This document shows, in pieces, positions 9,977-62,069 of a DNA stretch of 64,000 nt. The stretch comes from Candidatus Kaiserbacteria bacterium (GTDB taxonomy: Bacteria > Patescibacteriota > Minisyncoccia > Phycocordibacterales > JABMNX01). Location of the stretch: contig JACPLB010000002.1 of assembly GCA_016186705.1 (NCBI GenBank), forward strand, positions 20,811 through 84,810. The letters are read 5' to 3'. Both the position numbers and the translations under genes were made by a program. The notes under the pieces were generated by a model. The model was not told the DNA's origin. It worked only from the letters and a program-made list of their open reading frames with translations, and did no database searches. Positions within the stretch are counted from its first letter, which is position 1, and the number at the start of each line of letters is the position of its first letter.

Positions 9977-10143
9977 AATATACTATATGTGGTTGGCTTC
10001 AAGACTAGCACTTTTTGCCGAAATGCCCAAAGTATTGTACTATCTCAAAATAACACACGTGTATGTGTTATTTATTTTGGCTTACATAAAGTACCTAAAA
10101 GCTAAAAGCTCAAACCTGTAAGCTTCCGTCAACTGGCAGATAC

Positions 10144-18094: not shown

Positions 18095-18331
18095 CTAGAC
18101 ACCAAGGGCTTCCGAGAGTTTCTCTTTGTCAAACCCGACAAACATTCTCTCTCCGATAAAAATAACCGGTACTCCCATTTGTCCGCTTTTCTCAATCATT
18201 TCCTGCCGCTTATCCATGTCGGTCGCGACGTTGTAATCGGTATATTCAATTTTGTGCTCTTTTAAAAACTCTTTCGTCATCTGGCAGAAGTGACACGTCG
18301 GCGTACTATAAATTACAATGTTCTTCTCCAT
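18095..18331 (-). CDS. Glutaredoxin-like / NrdH-like redoxin (copy 1)
   Basis: Thioredoxin fold with a CHFC active site (YSTPTCHFCQ). A paralog lies at 54168-54404. Confidence 0.8.
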   Translation of the reverse strand: MEKNIVIYSTPTCHFCQMTKEFLKEHKIEYTDYNVATDMDKRQEMIEKSGQMGVPVIFIGERMFVGFDKEKLSEALGV

Positions 18332-24982: not shown

Positions 24983-25094
24983 GAGTCTTTACATTAAATG
25001 TTCATATAACTATACCAAATAACAACGCGTGAGGTAACGAATTCTGTGAGTATAAAAGAAAACAGCCCCGCTTGCGCGGGACTGTTTTCATATA

Positions 25095-25478
25095 TCTCAC
25101 TTGTATCTATAAGCCGAATTCTGTATCTCTCACTTGGATGATCTAGGTGAGGGGTGATAGCTATTTATCTGGTCCCGACGTTACCGTCGGGATCAAGCGG
25201 CACTTCCGCCGGCTGGCGGACGCGGCCTTGCATTCAGGTAAGGATTTAGCCGTTTCACCCCCTCACATGCACTGCATGTGAGGGACTGCGCCTCCAATTG
25301 AGGAGGCACCCATACGTCTTTCGTTGTACGGCGTCTCTGCTCGCACCTCTATCCTTGCGGACGACGGGTGTTACCCGCTACCCTGCTCCCCTCACATGCG
25401 TTGCAGGTGAGGGGGAATGTTCGGACTTTCCTCCAGACGCCGCAGAGGGCATCCGGCAACTATCCGATACAAGCTGTG
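25095..25478 (-). ncRNA. rnpB: RNase P RNA (bacterial type A)
   Basis: The minus strand contains GGAGGAAAGUCCGAAC (P4 5' strand) and ACAGAAUUCGGCUUAUAG (P4 3' strand). It also has GGUAACACC, GGGGGUGAAACGG and GCAAGGCC modules. A P1 helix CUUGUAUC/GAUACAAG joins the two ends. Confidence 0.85.
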
Positions 25479-25529: not shown

Positions 25530-25576
25530 GAGGCAAGAAAAAATGCCACAGGGGTATGGGGCATTTTTTATTTCTT
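25530..25576. terminator. Bidirectional intrinsic terminator between nrdJ 3' region and rnpB
   Basis: AAAAAATGCC-loop-GGCATTTTTT, a 10-bp stem with T-tracts on both sides. Confidence 0.6.
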
Positions 25577-25608
25577 TTCATCTGAGCGAAGACTGCCCAT
25601 TTGAAAGG

Positions 25609-25665
25609 CTTCGCAGGTTGAGCGGGCATGGTATCCTAAGACTTCCAGTATACTGGAAGTCTTAG
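25609..25665. repeat. Conserved ~57-nt hairpin RNA motif, copy 1 (TGAGCGGGCATGG - 36-nt hairpin - ATGAGCGAG)
   Basis: Same core as 34773-34829. The hairpin arms differ at four positions with compensatory changes that preserve pairing. Confidence 0.6.
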
Positions 25666-25745
25666 GATGAGCGAGACCGAGACTTGAGAGTGGGCGCCTG
25701 CTGGGCGCCCAACTCGTACTTTCAAATGGGCAGTGTGAGCGACCT

Positions 25746-28139
25746 TTATTCTATTTCACACGTCCCTCCCGCGCACGCGAGCTCTTTTTTAACTTCGGTC
25801 TCGTCCTGAAGTTCGTACGTCATAAGCTTTGAATAGTCAACGTTTTCGAACCGTTGAACGAGCTTCTCGTATTGTTCTTTCGTAATTTCTTCATATGGAG
25901 CAAGCTGATAGAGATGGTTGCTTCGCGGCAGGAATGAGAGTCCGCCGATGATATCCCAGTTCTTATACAGCCAGTCGGCGACGGTAATCCATTCGTTTTC
26001 TCCTACCGAAATCGTCGTTGATGGATTGTGCTCGGTGAAGTTCTTTTTGACTATCTTCCAATGTTCAAGCTGGTCGAGCGCGGTAATCTCATCTCGAAAG
26101 ACAGTGCCCTTCGGGGACTTGACCGGAAACTCCAATACGAACGTGTTGGCGCTCTCCATCGTCTGTCCAACTTCCGGATGAAACGGCACTCCTTGGTCTT
26201 TGAGCATCTTAAAGAGCGAGTCGGTTGCGGAAATGCGGATGCGGCGAATGTAATACGGAGCGTGCCGCGGATGCATGCCAGAGGCGCAGTTCACTGTCTG
26301 TGAGACTGTTCCCGACGGCTTGACGCAGGTAATTGCGTTTGAATGGTTGACGCCAAATTTTTTTGCGTACTGTTTGTTGACCTTGACGGTCTCGGCGCGA
26401 AGTTTCTTCAAAACCGGCGCCTGCCGAACCGCTTTTGAATCCCATTGACCGGTCAAGGAGACTCCAAGCAGACGTTCCGCTTCACAGTTTTCTTTCCAAT
26501 CTTTTGAAAGATATCTGAAATTCGTGAGTGTTGACTGATACGTGCCGAGAATTGTCGCGATGCGCACCTTGCGCAAAAGTGACGCTTCCGTGTCCTCCGC
26601 TCGGCAAATAACTTCGGAGAGATTGCAGAACTGCTTCGACTGTAAAATAATTTCCCCGCACGGGTTTGTTCCCGGTCGGTTGATGCCGTGCTGACCACCC
26701 TCATCAGAATTGTCCTTGTACTTATTTTTCAAATAGGCAAGGCGTCTCTCCGGCAATTGCTTCACGAGACTCCCGCGGTTAAAGATTCCGCGTTCGCCCG
26801 TGCCCGCTTTCATGAGCGCAAACCACTCTTCCATGAACTCAAGGTTTGATGGTCTCTCCTCATAGACGGCGGAATTATTCGCGAGCGAACGCTGTGGATT
26901 CGCAAGCCAAAACTGCCCGTTTTTCGCGTCCCTGACATCGTCATCATCGAGGTCGGAGAGAGAAATCATTGCCGAGCGGCGAACACCGCCAGAGACAATC
27001 GCTTCACCGATTTTGCAGATAATGTCGTGTGCGTCTATGTTGCGCAGACGCCGCCCTTGACGTGAAAGTACCCGTTCACGGGCAAAATTAAGCAATTGCC
27101 GCAGCGGTTCAGGTCCCGATGCTTTGCCGCCCATGGTCTTCAGCCGAGACCCCGCGGGACGGACGTTGGAGTAATCAAACGAAACATCTTTACCGTCAAA
27201 CCATGCTCGAAGACCATGAAGAAGAGCGTCTGCCCATCCTTCCGCCGAATCAGGTACGACGAAGACCTCGAGTTTTTTTCCAGTCTGCGGTTTGATCTGC
27301 GGAAGCTGTCCGATGTTCCAGCTCTCCACTCCAAAACCGACACCCGTTCCTTTTGACGAGAGGTAGAGAATTTCCGCGAAATCCTCGAGTCTCGTCGGCG
27401 CAATGTAGGAACAATTGTACGCGCAGACATTGCATTTGCGGGCGGCATCTCCGGCAAACTGCATGAGCCGCATTGACGGCATGACTTCCTGTTTGAGAAC
27501 TGCTTCCCGGATTTCCGTGTACTCTTTTGCGGTAAGTTTCGTCCCGAGATTCTCTTTCATAAAGCTGATGTAGCGGTCGACCGTTTCAATCCACGTCTCA
27601 CGCCGCCCCTCTTCACCTACCCAGCGCGCGTATGAACGCAGATACACAAAGTAGCCGAGGTCGTTTCCTTTAAAATATTTCGCGCTCTCCTCCGAAAGTT
27701 TTTTGACGCGCTCCGGTACGACAATGCCGAGCTCGCGAAGCTTTGCGCGTTCCGCCCGATAGAGAATGTACGATTTCGCAGTGACAACGTAATCGCCCAA
27801 AATGAGCTGCCGTTCTACTTCGTCCTGACATCCTTCGACGGTCGGCATGAAGTTACGGTATTTTCGCGCAATGCGAACCATGTCCGACGCCACCCGGTGC
27901 GCAACCATGATAGATTCCTCTTTTGAGCCCTCATTGCTTGCGACCATTGCCTTATGAATCGCGTGCGCAATCTTGTTGAAGTCAAATGGAACAATGCGTC
28001 CGTCGCGCTTTTGGATTTTACCGATAAATTTCTTGTAATCGGCTGCGTTGACGACATCTTTTTCTTGCGTGTCGACTTTTGTGTTCATAATCTCGTTAAT
28101 GTGCGCACGAGCTTTTTCCTGTTTGCGGGCATTGAGCAT
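25746..28139 (-). CDS. nrdJ: Ribonucleotide reductase, class II (adenosylcobalamin-dependent), with N-terminal ATP-cone
   Basis: NPCGEI active-site motif and C-terminal CAGGTCEIE redox tail. N-terminal ATP-cone (HINEIMNTKV...). Confidence 0.85.
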   Translation of the reverse strand: MLNARKQEKARAHINEIMNTKVDTQEKDVVNAADYKKFIGKIQKRDGRIVPFDFNKIAHAIHKAMVASNEGSKEESIMVAHRVASDMVRIARKYRNFMPTVEGCQDEVERQLILGDYVVTAKSYILYRAERAKLRELGIVVPERVKKLSEESAKYFKGNDLGYFVYLRSYARWVGEEGRRETWIETVDRYISFMKENLGTKLTAKEYTEIREAVLKQEVMPSMRLMQFAGDAARKCNVCAYNCSYIAPTRLEDFAEILYLSSKGTGVGFGVESWNIGQLPQIKPQTGKKLEVFVVPDSAEGWADALLHGLRAWFDGKDVSFDYSNVRPAGSRLKTMGGKASGPEPLRQLLNFARERVLSRQGRRLRNIDAHDIICKIGEAIVSGGVRRSAMISLSDLDDDDVRDAKNGQFWLANPQRSLANNSAVYEERPSNLEFMEEWFALMKAGTGERGIFNRGSLVKQLPERRLAYLKNKYKDNSDEGGQHGINRPGTNPCGEIILQSKQFCNLSEVICRAEDTEASLLRKVRIATILGTYQSTLTNFRYLSKDWKENCEAERLLGVSLTGQWDSKAVRQAPVLKKLRAETVKVNKQYAKKFGVNHSNAITCVKPSGTVSQTVNCASGMHPRHAPYYIRRIRISATDSLFKMLKDQGVPFHPEVGQTMESANTFVLEFPVKSPKGTVFRDEITALDQLEHWKIVKKNFTEHNPSTTISVGENEWITVADWLYKNWDIIGGLSFLPRSNHLYQLAPYEEITKEQYEKLVQRFENVDYSKLMTYELQDETEVKKELACAGGTCEIE

Positions 28140-33925: not shown

Positions 33926-34486
33926 CTAGAACGTTACCTTAACAGGTTCTTTCGCGGCATTCTCGCCTTCTCCCAGTTCGAAGAACTCCTGTTTGCCGAA
34001 GTGAAATGTATTTCCGATGATATTCTGGGGAAACGATTCCAGAGCGGTGTTGAGGTCCCGCACATTGCCGTTGTAAAAGCGCCGCGCTGCCTGAATTTTG
34101 TTTTCGGTGTCGGAGAGTTCCCGTTGAAGCTCAAGAAAGTTCGCGTTTGCCTTAAGGTCGGGGTAACTCTCCGCAACCGCGAAGAGCGACTTGAGCGCGT
34201 CTGTAAGCATGTTCTCCGCCCGCCCTTTTTCGTTAAGCCCGCCCGCCTGCATTGCCTTTGCCCGCATCTCGGTCACTTGCGCAAGTGTCTTCTTTTCATG
34301 AGCCGCGTATCCCTGTACGGTATTCACCAAATTCGGAATGAGGTCGTAACGGCGTTTCAGCTGAACGTCAATGTCCGCCCACGCCTCCTTCGCGCGGTTC
34401 ATAAACGTTACAAACCGATTGTAGGCAAAAATCGCCCACAGTACGATAACCACGATAATTCCTAAGACAATATAGAGGGTAGTCAT
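33926..34486 (-). CDS. lemA: LemA family protein
   Basis: N-terminal TM helix plus the LemA signature ...RRYDLIPNLVNTV. Confidence 0.85.
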   Translation of the reverse strand: MTTLYIVLGIIVVIVLWAIFAYNRFVTFMNRAKEAWADIDVQLKRRYDLIPNLVNTVQGYAAHEKKTLAQVTEMRAKAMQAGGLNEKGRAENMLTDALKSLFAVAESYPDLKANANFLELQRELSDTENKIQAARRFYNGNVRDLNTALESFPQNIIGNTFHFGKQEFFELGEGENAAKEPVKVTF

Positions 34487-34772
34487 AATGTAGCTTTTAG
34501 GTGTTAGCTTTTAGGGTTAAAATTTACCAAGCAATTATACAACAATCGGGCAAAATAAAAAAGCTTTGTTTAATAGATGACCGATAAAAACGAGTGTGTC
34601 TCTTTTTGAAAGCTATCGGAGGCGGCAGAGCTTGGTTTCATTCTTTCCTTTTTAGCGAGAGAAAACAGGTTTCTGGAACATTCACAGGAAAATTGTGTAT
34701 ATTTCTTTTTCTATTCAAGCGAGTCTTCTGCTTGAGGAAGACTTTCCGCCGGAGGGGCGGATAAACTCCACC

Positions 34773-34829
34773 TGAGCGGGCATGGCATCCAAGGACTTCC
34801 AGTATATTGGAAGTCCTTGGATGAGCGAG
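34773..34829. repeat. Conserved ~57-nt hairpin RNA motif, copy 2
   Basis: TGAGCGGGCATGG + CATCCAAGGACTTCCAGTATATTGGAAGTCCTTGGATG + AGCGAG. Confidence 0.6.
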
Positions 34830-34834
34830 GTGCC

Positions 34835-34863
34835 TTGACAAAAGTTATAATATGGTATATAAT
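34835..34863 (+). promoter_or_regulatory. Consensus sigma70 promoter: TTGACA, 17-nt spacer, TATAAT
   Basis: CTTGACAAAAGTT...TATAAT. It is paralogous to the promoter at 283-311. Confidence 0.6.
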
Positions 34864-34916: not shown

Positions 34917-35171
34917 ATGACTACATCGCAAACGCAAACCCAAATCAACGTGAGGACACTCTTCTTTGCGTGTGCCTTCGCTGGGCTCTTCGTTGTTTCG
35001 GCCTTGATCCCGGTTTTCTCAAGTCCGATCTTCAGCTACCTGGTCCTGGCACTCGATATGAACGTCCTGCTCGCGTACCTCCTGTCGAACTTCATCGTTG
35101 CCACGATCGCCTTCGTCGCCTTTCTCTTCTACATGCGGAAGATGACGCAACGAAAGCCGACCGGGGGCTAA
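34917..35171 (+). CDS. Small membrane protein, 84 aa, 2 TM helices
   Basis: Consensus promoter, a palindromic 5'UTR hairpin CAGATGATGTCATCTG, and a GAGGAAG Shine-Dalgarno precede the ORF. A strong terminator follows. Confidence 0.5.
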   Translation: MTTSQTQTQINVRTLFFACAFAGLFVVSALIPVFSSPIFSYLVLALDMNVLLAYLLSNFIVATIAFVAFLFYMRKMTQRKPTGG

Positions 35172-35222: not shown

Positions 35223-35335
35223 TTTATCTACACGAATACTCAAGTGCTTTTATGCCTGAGAGCGTCCCGTCGAGGAGAAACTGAAGCATCGCGCCGCCGC
35301 GCTTTTCTTTTTAATTTTTCCACTTAAGCGAGCAA

Positions 35336-35454
35336 ATATAAGTTTATAGAACATTCGCAGGAAAATTTGCATGGTTCTGCGCAAGCAGAAAATTTTCCGA
35401 GGACGAAGAAAATCACTCGCTGGAGTGATTTTCTGATTCTATAAACTTATATTT
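35336..35454. repeat. 18-bp perfect inverted repeat pair flanking ~85 bp, downstream of groEL
   Basis: AAATATAAGTTTATAGAA ... TTCTATAAACTTATATTT. Internal smaller palindromes are present. Confidence 0.5.
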
Positions 35455-35467
35455 CACGAGCGACCCA

Positions 35468-37129: not shown

Positions 37130-37196
37130 ATTGTTTTAATTTTAAATCTTGTAGATTTGAGACATTCCCTAAAAGCTCAAAGCTAACACCTAAAAG

Positions 37197-37511
37197 CTAT
37201 TTTATTACTGCTAAAATATTCTCTTCTTTTACGATGTAATACTTTACTTCGTCAACCGTAATCTCGTCGTATCCGTATTTCGAAAAGACGACCCGGTCAT
37301 TGACTTTCACTCTTACCGGAATCACTTCTCCCTTTTCGGTCACCCGACCGAGACCGACGGCAATGACTTTCCCCTCCTCCGGCTTTTCCTGACTCACGGT
37401 ATCCGGAATAATAATTCCACTTTTTGTTTTCTGCTCACGGGGCGGAATTTCAATCAATACCCTGTCCCCTAACGGGGAAATTCTCGGTTTTTTTGCTGAA
37501 CCTTTTGGCAT
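37197..37511 (-). CDS. groS: Co-chaperonin GroES
   Basis: Cpn10, located upstream of groEL. Confidence 0.95.
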   Translation of the reverse strand: MPKGSAKKPRISPLGDRVLIEIPPREQKTKSGIIIPDTVSQEKPEEGKVIAVGLGRVTEKGEVIPVRVKVNDRVVFSKYGYDEITVDEVKYYIVKEENILAVIK

Positions 37512-54167: not shown

Positions 54168-54404
54168 TTACGCAATATCAAGAAGTGGCTTAAGTTTTGC
54201 TTCGTCAAAACCGATAATCATTTCATCGTCGACAAAAATAACCGGCACACCCATCTGTCCGCTCTTTTGAATCATCTCATCCCGCTTTGCCGTATCGGTT
54301 GAGACATCATAATTGGTGAATGCGATGTTGTACTCCTTGAAGAATGCTTTTGCCGCCTGGCAGAAGTGACAGGTGGGTGTTGAGTATATCGTTACGTTTT
54401 TCAT
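54168..54404 (-). CDS. Glutaredoxin-like / NrdH-like redoxin (copy 2)
   Basis: YSTPTCHFCQ active site. About 60% identical to 18095-18331. Confidence 0.8.
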   Translation of the reverse strand: MKNVTIYSTPTCHFCQAAKAFFKEYNIAFTNYDVSTDTAKRDEMIQKSGQMGVPVIFVDDEMIIGFDEAKLKPLLDIA

Positions 54405-61907: not shown

Positions 61908-62069
61908 AACAGCTTAAAACATACACTATTTGAAGGAGAAATTAAATGCCTCATACCTATGAGGCATTTTTTATAATCAACTTTTTTGCGGGAAGGTGGG
62001 GACATGAATTCGCTTATTCGCCTGCTAACGGAAAGCGGTTTCTGTCTCGGCTCAAAACAAGGTCTTTGT

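Follow-up and report, generated by a model that had tools for sequence, protein, structure and literature searches.

The spacer downstream of nrdJ in a Candidatus Kaiserbacteria genome contains an element with strong predicted folding, which raises the question of what the element is and whether it serves the ribonucleotide reductase gene next to it. The window, which is the whole 64-kb stretch of DNA that was analysed, carries nrdJ on its minus strand (25746–28139). The 797-residue-long product is a class II ribonucleotide reductase with an ATP-cone (Pfam domains ATP-cone, RNR_Alpha, RNR-II_ins_dom, and Ribonuc_red_lgC), and it is 100% identical to a ribonucleoside-triphosphate reductase of Candidatus Kaiserbacteria (CPR). 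In the direction of the minus strand, the stop codon of nrdJ (25746–25748) is followed by the element, a hairpin at positions 25541–25571, rnpB, the gene of a TPR protein, and MurJ. The 3′ GAGCGA flank of the element (25737–25742) is 3 nt from the stop codon. The rnpB gene encodes class A RNase P RNA (25094–25475, minus strand; Rfam RF00010, 103.5 bits, relative to a gathering score of 100). The hairpin between the element and rnpB has 8 + 2 base pairs and is flanked by U runs on both strands; its predicted fold suggests that it functions as a bidirectional terminator, and a simple consensus scan did not call it. An earlier note on this DNA placed the element correctly between the nrdJ stop codon and this hairpin, and proposed that it is an RNA switch, a stabilizer, or a small RNA processed from the 3′ untranslated region of nrdJ. 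Because of its position, the element should indeed be co-transcribed with nrdJ; however, nrdJ is encoded on the minus strand, and its transcript therefore carries the complement of the strand that the note described. The strand conserved in the family presented below is the plus strand, which is antisense to both nrdJ and rnpB.

Two further observations were made on the neighbours of the element. The minus strand of rnpB contains two near-identical hairpins (CCCCTCACATGC..GCATGTGAGGG) at positions 25259–25284 and 25388–25413. In the rnpB of one relative (L006), both of these sites are occupied by another sequence, which is again duplicated, and the rnpB of the closest relative (L128) also contains a near-identical hairpin twice, so that from the sequences the two helices look like a case of concerted evolution. 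The terminator-like hairpin at 25541–25571 shares its flanks (AAATGCC...GGCATTTTTTAT), together with a different interior, with hairpins at 61944–61974 and 10048–10078; judged by these flanks, such hairpins may constitute a second small repeat class.

Structure of the element downstream of nrdJ

The element occupies positions 25584–25742 of the plus strand and is delimited by GAGCGA flanks (25584–25589 and 25737–25742). Its outer stem, P1, is formed by the 5′ arm ACTGCCCATTTGAAAG (25592–25607) and the 3′ arm CTTTCAAATGGGCAGT (25719–25734), which are complementary in 16 of 16 positions and separated by 111 nt, in agreement with the outer repeat enclosing about 110 nt in the earlier note. The sequence of the 5′ arm does not occur a second time in the 64-kb window. 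Inside the stem is the conserved core TGAGCGGGCATGG (25619–25631), which includes a GA/GC junction and the bulge GGGCAUGG, and the same 13-mer is present in copies from other phyla. The core is followed by a variable hairpin, hp1, which an inverted-repeat search identified as a perfect 36-nt palindrome (25633–25668), and by the family-conserved junction motif GAGCGAG (25669–25675). The motif pairs with GAGC of the core through tandem G·A pairs and GC/GC pairs, the latter of which are nearly invariant in the alignment of the family. The second hairpin, hp2, has the sequence AGTGGGCGCC-TGCT-GGGCGCCCAACT (25689–25714), aligns to positions 79–100 of the covariance model described below, and contains a GC stem in which TGGGCGCC (25691–25698) pairs with GGCGCCCA (25704–25711). 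It carries the GCUGGG loop motif of the family, with the loop UGCUGGG in this copy, and GC.GGG is invariant in the family alignment. The outer stem is bracketed by GCGA (25586–25589) and GAGC (25737–25740), and other copies are arranged likewise. All of the inverted repeats listed in the earlier note, including the perfect internal palindrome, are present; only their coordinates were about 10 nt too low.

The predicted stability of the whole fold is far beyond that expected by chance. The folding energy of a 211-nt stretch as RNA is −87.9 kcal/mol (z −9.35) for the minus strand and −99.5 kcal/mol (z −8.19) for the plus strand, and the 147-nt element reaches z-scores of −9.8 and −10.2 as RNA and −11.0 and −10.7 with DNA parameters. 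These values, about −8 to −10 as RNA, bear out the fold suggested in the note. By contrast, the mutually exclusive pairings on which its switch was built do not hold up. The alternative is a local hairpin in which GCGAAGACT (25586–25594) faces AGGCTTCGC (25606–25614) with eight of nine positions paired. The calculated energies of this GCGAAG/CTTCGC hairpin are −9.2 and −9.9 kcal/mol, with z-scores of −1.2 and −1.5 (about −1.3), and 16–20 of 200 shuffled sequences fold equally well. In these calculations, the local hairpin does not exceed chance and is no competitor for the 16-bp outer stem. The element was also considered as an intrinsic terminator, and this was rejected because the nrdJ strand lacks a U run after the outer stem; it is the separate hairpin at 25541–25571 that has the form of a terminator.

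Copies of the element in other genomes

Copies of the element are dispersed in many other genomes. A pattern scan of one genome per species with TGAGCGGGCATGG-N28-48-GAGCGAG identified at least 118 loci. Among the matches listed, about 60–70 loci are true copies with a common architecture, and some others are chance matches in high-GC coding DNA. The hosts, by record title and among the matches listed, are Aminicenantes, Omnitrophota, Desulfaltia, and ‘uncultured Eubacteriales’, together with the CPR groups Nealsonbacteria, Portnoybacteria, Saccharibacteria, and other Patescibacteria. The phylum labels are those of the depositors of the metagenome-assembled genomes (MAGs), and some copies labelled ‘Eubacteriales’ are nearly identical to those from Aminicenantes (for example, L046 and L039). 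The diversity of the hosts is nevertheless supported by the GC content of the loci, which ranges from 35 to 66%, and by the leucyl-tRNA synthetases (LeuRS) of two hosts, which are only 50% identical.

A covariance model, R1, was built from 20 copies of other genomes, without any sequence from the window. The model matches the nrdJ-adjacent element at full length (25601–25729, plus strand) with a score of 63.2 bits and an E-value of about 1e-16. The segment 25616–25678, which spans the core, the variable hairpin, GAGCGA(A/G), and the short closing helix, aligns to R1, and the 13-mer of the core and the 7-mer of the junction are exact. The nrdJ-adjacent element is thus a member of the family. 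When applied to 0.57 Mb of loci from the pattern scan, R1 identified 80 copies, including about ten that the exact pattern of the scan does not match. Since the pattern fixed the core and inflates its apparent invariance, only these approximately ten copies found by the model test the conservation of the core; in the four of them that are full-length, the core is kept with one to three base changes.

Members of the family are about 150–220 nt long, intergenic, and multi-copy, and some of them are partial modules or form mosaics with other repeats. At least 31 loci share a single MAG-specific signature, with a repeat unit of about 185 nt and 89–98% identity, and are often situated at contig ends, mixed with other repeat modules. 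One copy contains a tandem duplication of the GAGCGGGCATGG core (L105, 506–560). A second conserved module, GTGAACCACGACAGGACCCGTCGGGTG, is found about +123 to +128 nt from the core in L009, L020, L119, L124, and others; it is absent from the copies in the window.

Architecture, covariation, and strand asymmetry

The purine-rich strand of the family has a common order of parts. In the 5′ to 3′ direction, its first half consists of GCGA, the 5′ arm of the outer stem, one or two short helices, UGAGCGGGCAUGG, the variable hairpin, and GAGCGA(A/G). The second half consists of the closing strands of the short helices, GAGCGAG, the hairpin with the GCYGGG loop, (C)GAGCG, the 3′ arm of the outer stem, and GAGC. 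The UGAGCGGGCAUGG core, the GAGCGA junctions, and the GCYGGG loop are kept in all copies, and every helix covaries. In the facing GAGCGA motifs, GC pairs with GC, with tandem G·A pairs alongside. The core and the loop of hp2 are unchanged across hosts of 35–66% GC. The variable hairpin is usually closed by a C-GNA-G triloop, and GCGAAGC is among the sequences that occur.

Among 71 distinct sequences, 94.8% of the cells at paired positions are standard pairs, compared with 39–57% when the partners are slid, in an alignment that was itself fitted to the model. Double changes occur in 17 of 19 pairs, and covariation was also obtained in an independent RNAalifold analysis. The perfect long stems could also be kept by gene conversion within the palindromes instead of by selection.

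The two strands of the family are not equivalent. In each of 41 distinct copies, the predicted fold of the purine-rich strand is more stable than that of its complement, by a mean of 14 kcal/mol, and the purine-rich strand contains 227 G·U pairs, whereas the complement contains 99. A U·G pair in hp2 is conserved in 21 of 28 sequences. This asymmetry in stability and in G·U pairs, together with the conserved U·G pair, indicates that the family is constrained as a single strand.

Additional copies in the window

The window contains two more copies of the family. A partial copy, made up of the core, hp1, and GAGCGAG only, is located at positions 34772–34830, of which 34773–34829 are 89% identical to 25619–25675; it matches positions 18–63 of R1 with 24.9 bits. 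The hp1 of this copy (34786–34822) differs from that of the nrdJ-adjacent copy (25633–25668) by compensatory changes in the stem. A diverged full-length third copy at positions 35328–35462 is matched by R1 with 23.5 bits (E about 3e-5) and has a fold z-score of −7.9. Its outer stem (35334–35351 and 35437–35454) is a perfect 18-bp inverted repeat with the flanks AGCGAGC and CGAGCG. The outer stems of the copies at 25592–25607 and 35334–35351 are unrelated in sequence, and the same is true across loci. All three copies are on the plus strand, which is the strand of negative GC skew, although three copies are few and the orientation of paired copies in other loci is mixed.

The surroundings of the second and third copies have several features of their own. 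A sigma-70 consensus promoter with 12 of 12 matching positions (TTGACA-17-TATAAT) is located at 34835–34863, with its −35 box 4 nt past the end of the partial copy. Downstream of the promoter is an 84-residue ORF of a predicted membrane protein (34917–35171), which is bracketed by the two repeat copies. Just upstream of the partial copy, at 34718–34760, are two small hairpins, AGCGAGTCTTC..GAAGACT and CCGCC-GGAG-GGGCGG; the AGCGAG tag on the AGCGAGTCTTC hairpin suggests, from its sequence, a mosaic of hairpin modules.

Other repeats of the window were noted in passing. The motif CTAAAAGCTAACACCTAAAAGCTA occurs at 34481–34514, 37176–37209, and 10094–10117, of which the first two look by eye like the start of a LemA-like gene and a groES/groEL-like spacer, respectively, and the third precedes a tRNA. 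A 188-nt repeat (18117–18304 and 54193–54380) has an identity of 74%, or a mean column identity of 84% over a 221-nt alignment. It is coding on the minus strand and includes a CxxC motif; the two copies are probably parts of paralogous glutaredoxin/NrdH-like genes.

History of the nrdJ site

The element is absent from the orthologous site in five Kaiserbacteria-like relatives (L004, L005, L006, L131, and L132), the NrdJ proteins of which are 80–82% identical to that of the window. In these genomes, nrdJ, rnpB, and the TPR gene have the same order, as does MurJ where the locus reaches that far, and nrdJ is followed by its stop codon, a short spacer, and a simple terminator only. A search of the five spacers after nrdJ with R1, with filters switched off, found nothing. 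In two of the relatives, rnpB is inverted relative to the window (L004, 5392–6018; L131, 3892–4597).

The closest relative, with an NrdJ identity of 91%, differs from the other five. Its nrdJ contig ends 36 nt past the stop codon, and a second contig of the same sample, which contains rnpB and the TPR gene, begins about 95 nt ahead of rnpB. At these two ends are arms of ~20 nt that are complementary to each other, GCGCATCTCTTTTTTGAAAC and GTTTCCAAAAAAGAGATGCGC, with GAGCG-like flanks. The arms differ in sequence from the outer stem of the window copy, yet they pair with each other, and comparison of the sequences indicates that the outer stem has been kept, either by compensation or by conversion between its arms. 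Since the element is present in the closest relative and absent from the five others, it predates the split of the two species and postdates the wider clade. Absence from related genomes, which the earlier note had regarded as evidence against its reading, was thus found in five relatives and not in the closest one.

The ends of contigs at the element have a pattern of their own. The Logan contigs L001 and L002 end inside hp1, at the equivalent of position 25639 of the window, and the 3′ end of L003 and the 5′ end of L128 are inside or at the element. Short-read contigs of both this species and its closest relative stop at the element, which indicates that the palindromes break assemblies.

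Searches for known identity and partner genes

In Rfam 15, the copies from the window and an Aminicenantes copy had only miRNA-type matches at chance level (E at least 0.06), and 16 loci had no match at the gathering score. BLAST searches of phage and plasmid records with the window element and an Aminicenantes-type copy, and a pattern scan of IMG/VR, found no match, and two metagenome scans directed at the Kaiserbacteria-type hairpin and subfamily yielded zero matches. Literature searches by sequence returned unrelated primers only and those by keyword returned general papers on REP sequences and MITEs only; a 2026 preprint on the mining of non-coding elements describes other families. In strength, the covariation of the family equals that of curated RNA families. 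Nevertheless, neither Rfam 15 nor the phage, plasmid, and viral collections contain the family, and it does not appear in the searchable literature.

Several known classes were compared with the family and rejected. A coding function was considered because the core contains an ATG on both strands; however, the ORFs are 3–40 codons long, vary in length, and cross the covarying stems. The consensus positions of the hammerhead (CUGANGA...GAAA), K-turn, and T-box do not fit by eye, in agreement with Rfam. The GTTGAGC of the window copy fits the GTTRRRY of integron attC sites, but these bases are not conserved in the family. A retron msr/msd RNA, in which inverted repeats surround a structured RNA beside a reverse transcriptase gene, does not fit, since the neighbours of the window copy are nrdJ and rnpB and no gene recurs beside other copies.

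The copies are intergenic and have no orientation bias relative to neighbouring genes: of 35 copies, 14 are antisense to both neighbours, nine are sense to both, seven are in divergent positions, and five in convergent ones. A search for partner genes, which covered about 3 kb on either side of 68 copies, showed no protein that recurs as a neighbour. The recurrent clusters were limited to spurious ORFs that cross the repeat and to two kinds of common housekeeping genes, those of class I aminoacyl-tRNA synthetases and of ABC ATPases, and they were rejected as partners. A promoter search upstream of the copies found no shared motif, and a consensus scan found no promoter-like site near the nrdJ-adjacent copy. 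No transposase, target-site duplication, or polymorphism between empty and filled sites was found; therefore, the mobility of the family is deduced from its distribution only.

Comparison with known repeats and structured elements

REP sequences are palindromic units of 20–40 bp, one end of which bears an unpaired GTAG or CGTC tag (PMC3733652). The R1 family resembles REP, BIME, and REPIN sequences in being intergenic, multi-copy, palindromic, modular, and mosaic with other repeats, and REP sequences, too, are often positioned just 3′ of genes, are co-transcribed with them, and are thought to stabilize the 3′ ends of mRNAs (PMC3733652, PMC2817692, PMC3116915). Both have a short conserved purine tag beside each hairpin, and strand-specific recognition as a single strand is proposed for both. 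However, REP units differ between genera, whereas members of the R1 family are about 150–220 nt long and branched, with a GAGCG(A/G) tag and an unpaired core that is identical across phyla. REP sequences are moved by RAYT tyrosine (Y1) transposases, and no RAYT gene was seen within the approximately 8 kb inspected around each copy of the R1 family.

Like MITEs and modular repeats such as Correia, ERIC, RUP, and BOX, members of the family have long terminal inverted repeats and no coding capacity, belong to the same size class, are inserted into the 3′ regions of genes, where they become parts of transcripts, and occur as partial modules (see also PMC3184786). By contrast, the termini of MITEs are conserved and their interiors drift, whereas the termini of the R1 family covary freely and its interior is fixed. 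The family is without clear target-site duplication and is distributed beyond one genus, which also sets it apart from MITEs.

The CGAG blocks and GCGNAGC mini-hairpins are unusually stable motifs of single-stranded DNA (PMC10085684; PMC13037366). The pairing of GAGCGA with GAGCGA amounts to two CGAG-type blocks, and many apical loops of the family are of the C-GNA-G type, including GCGAAGC. However, those motifs have been studied in oligonucleotides and a human promoter and not in genomic repeats, and the likeness is no proof of action as DNA here. Structured elements of 3′ untranslated regions and small RNAs derived from them resemble the nrdJ-adjacent element in their stable fold and their location between stop codon and terminator. 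By contrast, such elements are in sense orientation and conserved with their gene, whereas the nrdJ-adjacent element has the antisense orientation, is part of a dispersed family, and is missing at orthologous loci.

Origin and possible function

The nrdJ-adjacent element is probably, with a likelihood that we estimate at about 0.7, one copy of a dispersed, non-coding, non-autonomous, and uncatalogued structured repeat of the REP/MITE type. In the mechanism that we propose, the long outer stem of the purine-rich strand would close a branched junction held together by GAGCGA motifs that pair mutually (C:G, sheared G:A, A:G, and G:C). The junction would also bear the bulge GGGCAUGG and two hairpins, one of them variable and the other with the GCYGGG loop, and the bulge is predicted to make contact with a loop (GGC with GCY). 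The insertion of a copy after the nrdJ stop codon, ahead of the terminator, would have taken place in the common ancestor, before this Kaiserbacteria species separated from its closest relative. The mRNA of nrdJ would then carry only the complement of the family-sense strand, which is still predicted to fold into very stable hairpins. The local effect of the insertion is most likely to be passive, with the hairpins serving as a barrier to 3′ exonucleases or as an insulator ahead of rnpB, as has been proposed for REP sequences. An effect on nrdJ would be at most that of a passive 3′ hairpin; of the stabilizer suggested in the earlier note, a passive function at the 3′ end may stand, whereas one dedicated to nrdJ does not.

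The nucleic acid in which the fold of the family acts can be judged from indirect pointers. About even odds are given to the reading that the family acts as folded single-stranded DNA in replication or transposition, recognized by a factor encoded elsewhere. The absence of a link to the direction of transcription, the modular and mosaic copies, the CGAG blocks, and the C-GNA-G and GCGAAGC loops point to DNA. Action as sense-strand RNA comes second and is tentatively considered somewhat less probable; the invariant unpaired nucleotides, the conserved U·G pair, and the retention of diverged copies in a small CPR genome point to it. Conservation of unpaired bases across phyla, the U·G pair of hp2, and a junction-rich fold are also expected of a functional RNA, and they count against the reading as a repeat. 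The three copies in the window are highly diverged, which fits long-term maintenance better than a recent burst. It is possible, if not the favoured reading, that the family represents a kind of functional single-stranded element not described before, acting as a structured RNA or as a signal in single-stranded DNA, with a branched core of tandem G·A pairs, which is common to distant uncultivated phyla including the CPR and is spread or used by way of a trans-acting partner.

The same features could suggest a family of independently expressed small structured RNAs, transcribed from the purine-rich strand and trans-acting, protein-sequestering, or catalytic, of which the nrdJ-adjacent copy would be a paralogue. 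The strand-specific conservation (the G·A junctions, the U·G pair, and the greater stability of the sense strand in all 41 copies), the invariance of the unpaired core and loop across distant hosts while all helices covary, and the retention of the fold in old and diverged copies of a small genome would all be explained. However, there is no promoter-like site near the window copy, and a terminator is immediately upstream of it on the sense strand; the copies have no common upstream motif, and 14 of 35 are antisense to both neighbours. The more than 30 near-identical copies that break the assembly of one genome are unusual for genes of small RNAs, perfect stems of 20–30 bp would be substrates of RNase III, and no Rfam family matches. 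A small-RNA family is therefore unlikely. A classical MITE, which would have arisen from an insertion sequence by deletion and been moved by a DDE transposase bound to the terminal inverted repeats, is far less probable still, in spite of the perfect 16-bp terminal inverted repeat, the length of about 150 nt, the multi-copy intergenic occurrence, and the 7-nt TGAGCGA on both flanks of the window copy. From copy to copy and from lineage to lineage, the terminal stems are entirely different and the interior is conserved, which is the reverse of a MITE; the flanking GCGA...GAGC is a structural feature of the family in all copies, elsewhere as here, and probably no target duplication. Moreover, no related transposase or insertion sequence is near any copy, and the strand asymmetry is strong.

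The least probable of the readings, and one to which hardly any weight can be given, is that of the earlier note, in which the element is a dedicated cis-acting part of the nrdJ 3′ untranslated region that functions as a riboswitch-like switch or a precursor of a small RNA. Its position from stop codon to terminator, with the co-transcription that follows, and the structured element at the same site in the closest relative speak for it. Nevertheless, the alternative hairpin folds no better than expected by chance, the strand conserved in the family runs antisense to nrdJ, copies are situated beside unrelated genes in many genomes, the element is missing from five syntenic relatives, and Rfam provides no match. 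A tempting interpretation of the locus as a regulator is thereby removed, and the structure is not a regulator that evolved to serve ribonucleotide reductase.

Should the family prove functional, it would be a candidate for a new structured RNA or a new signal in single-stranded DNA, in lineages that have very little non-coding DNA. The recognition of its assembly-breaking palindromes would aid the finishing and annotation of MAGs.
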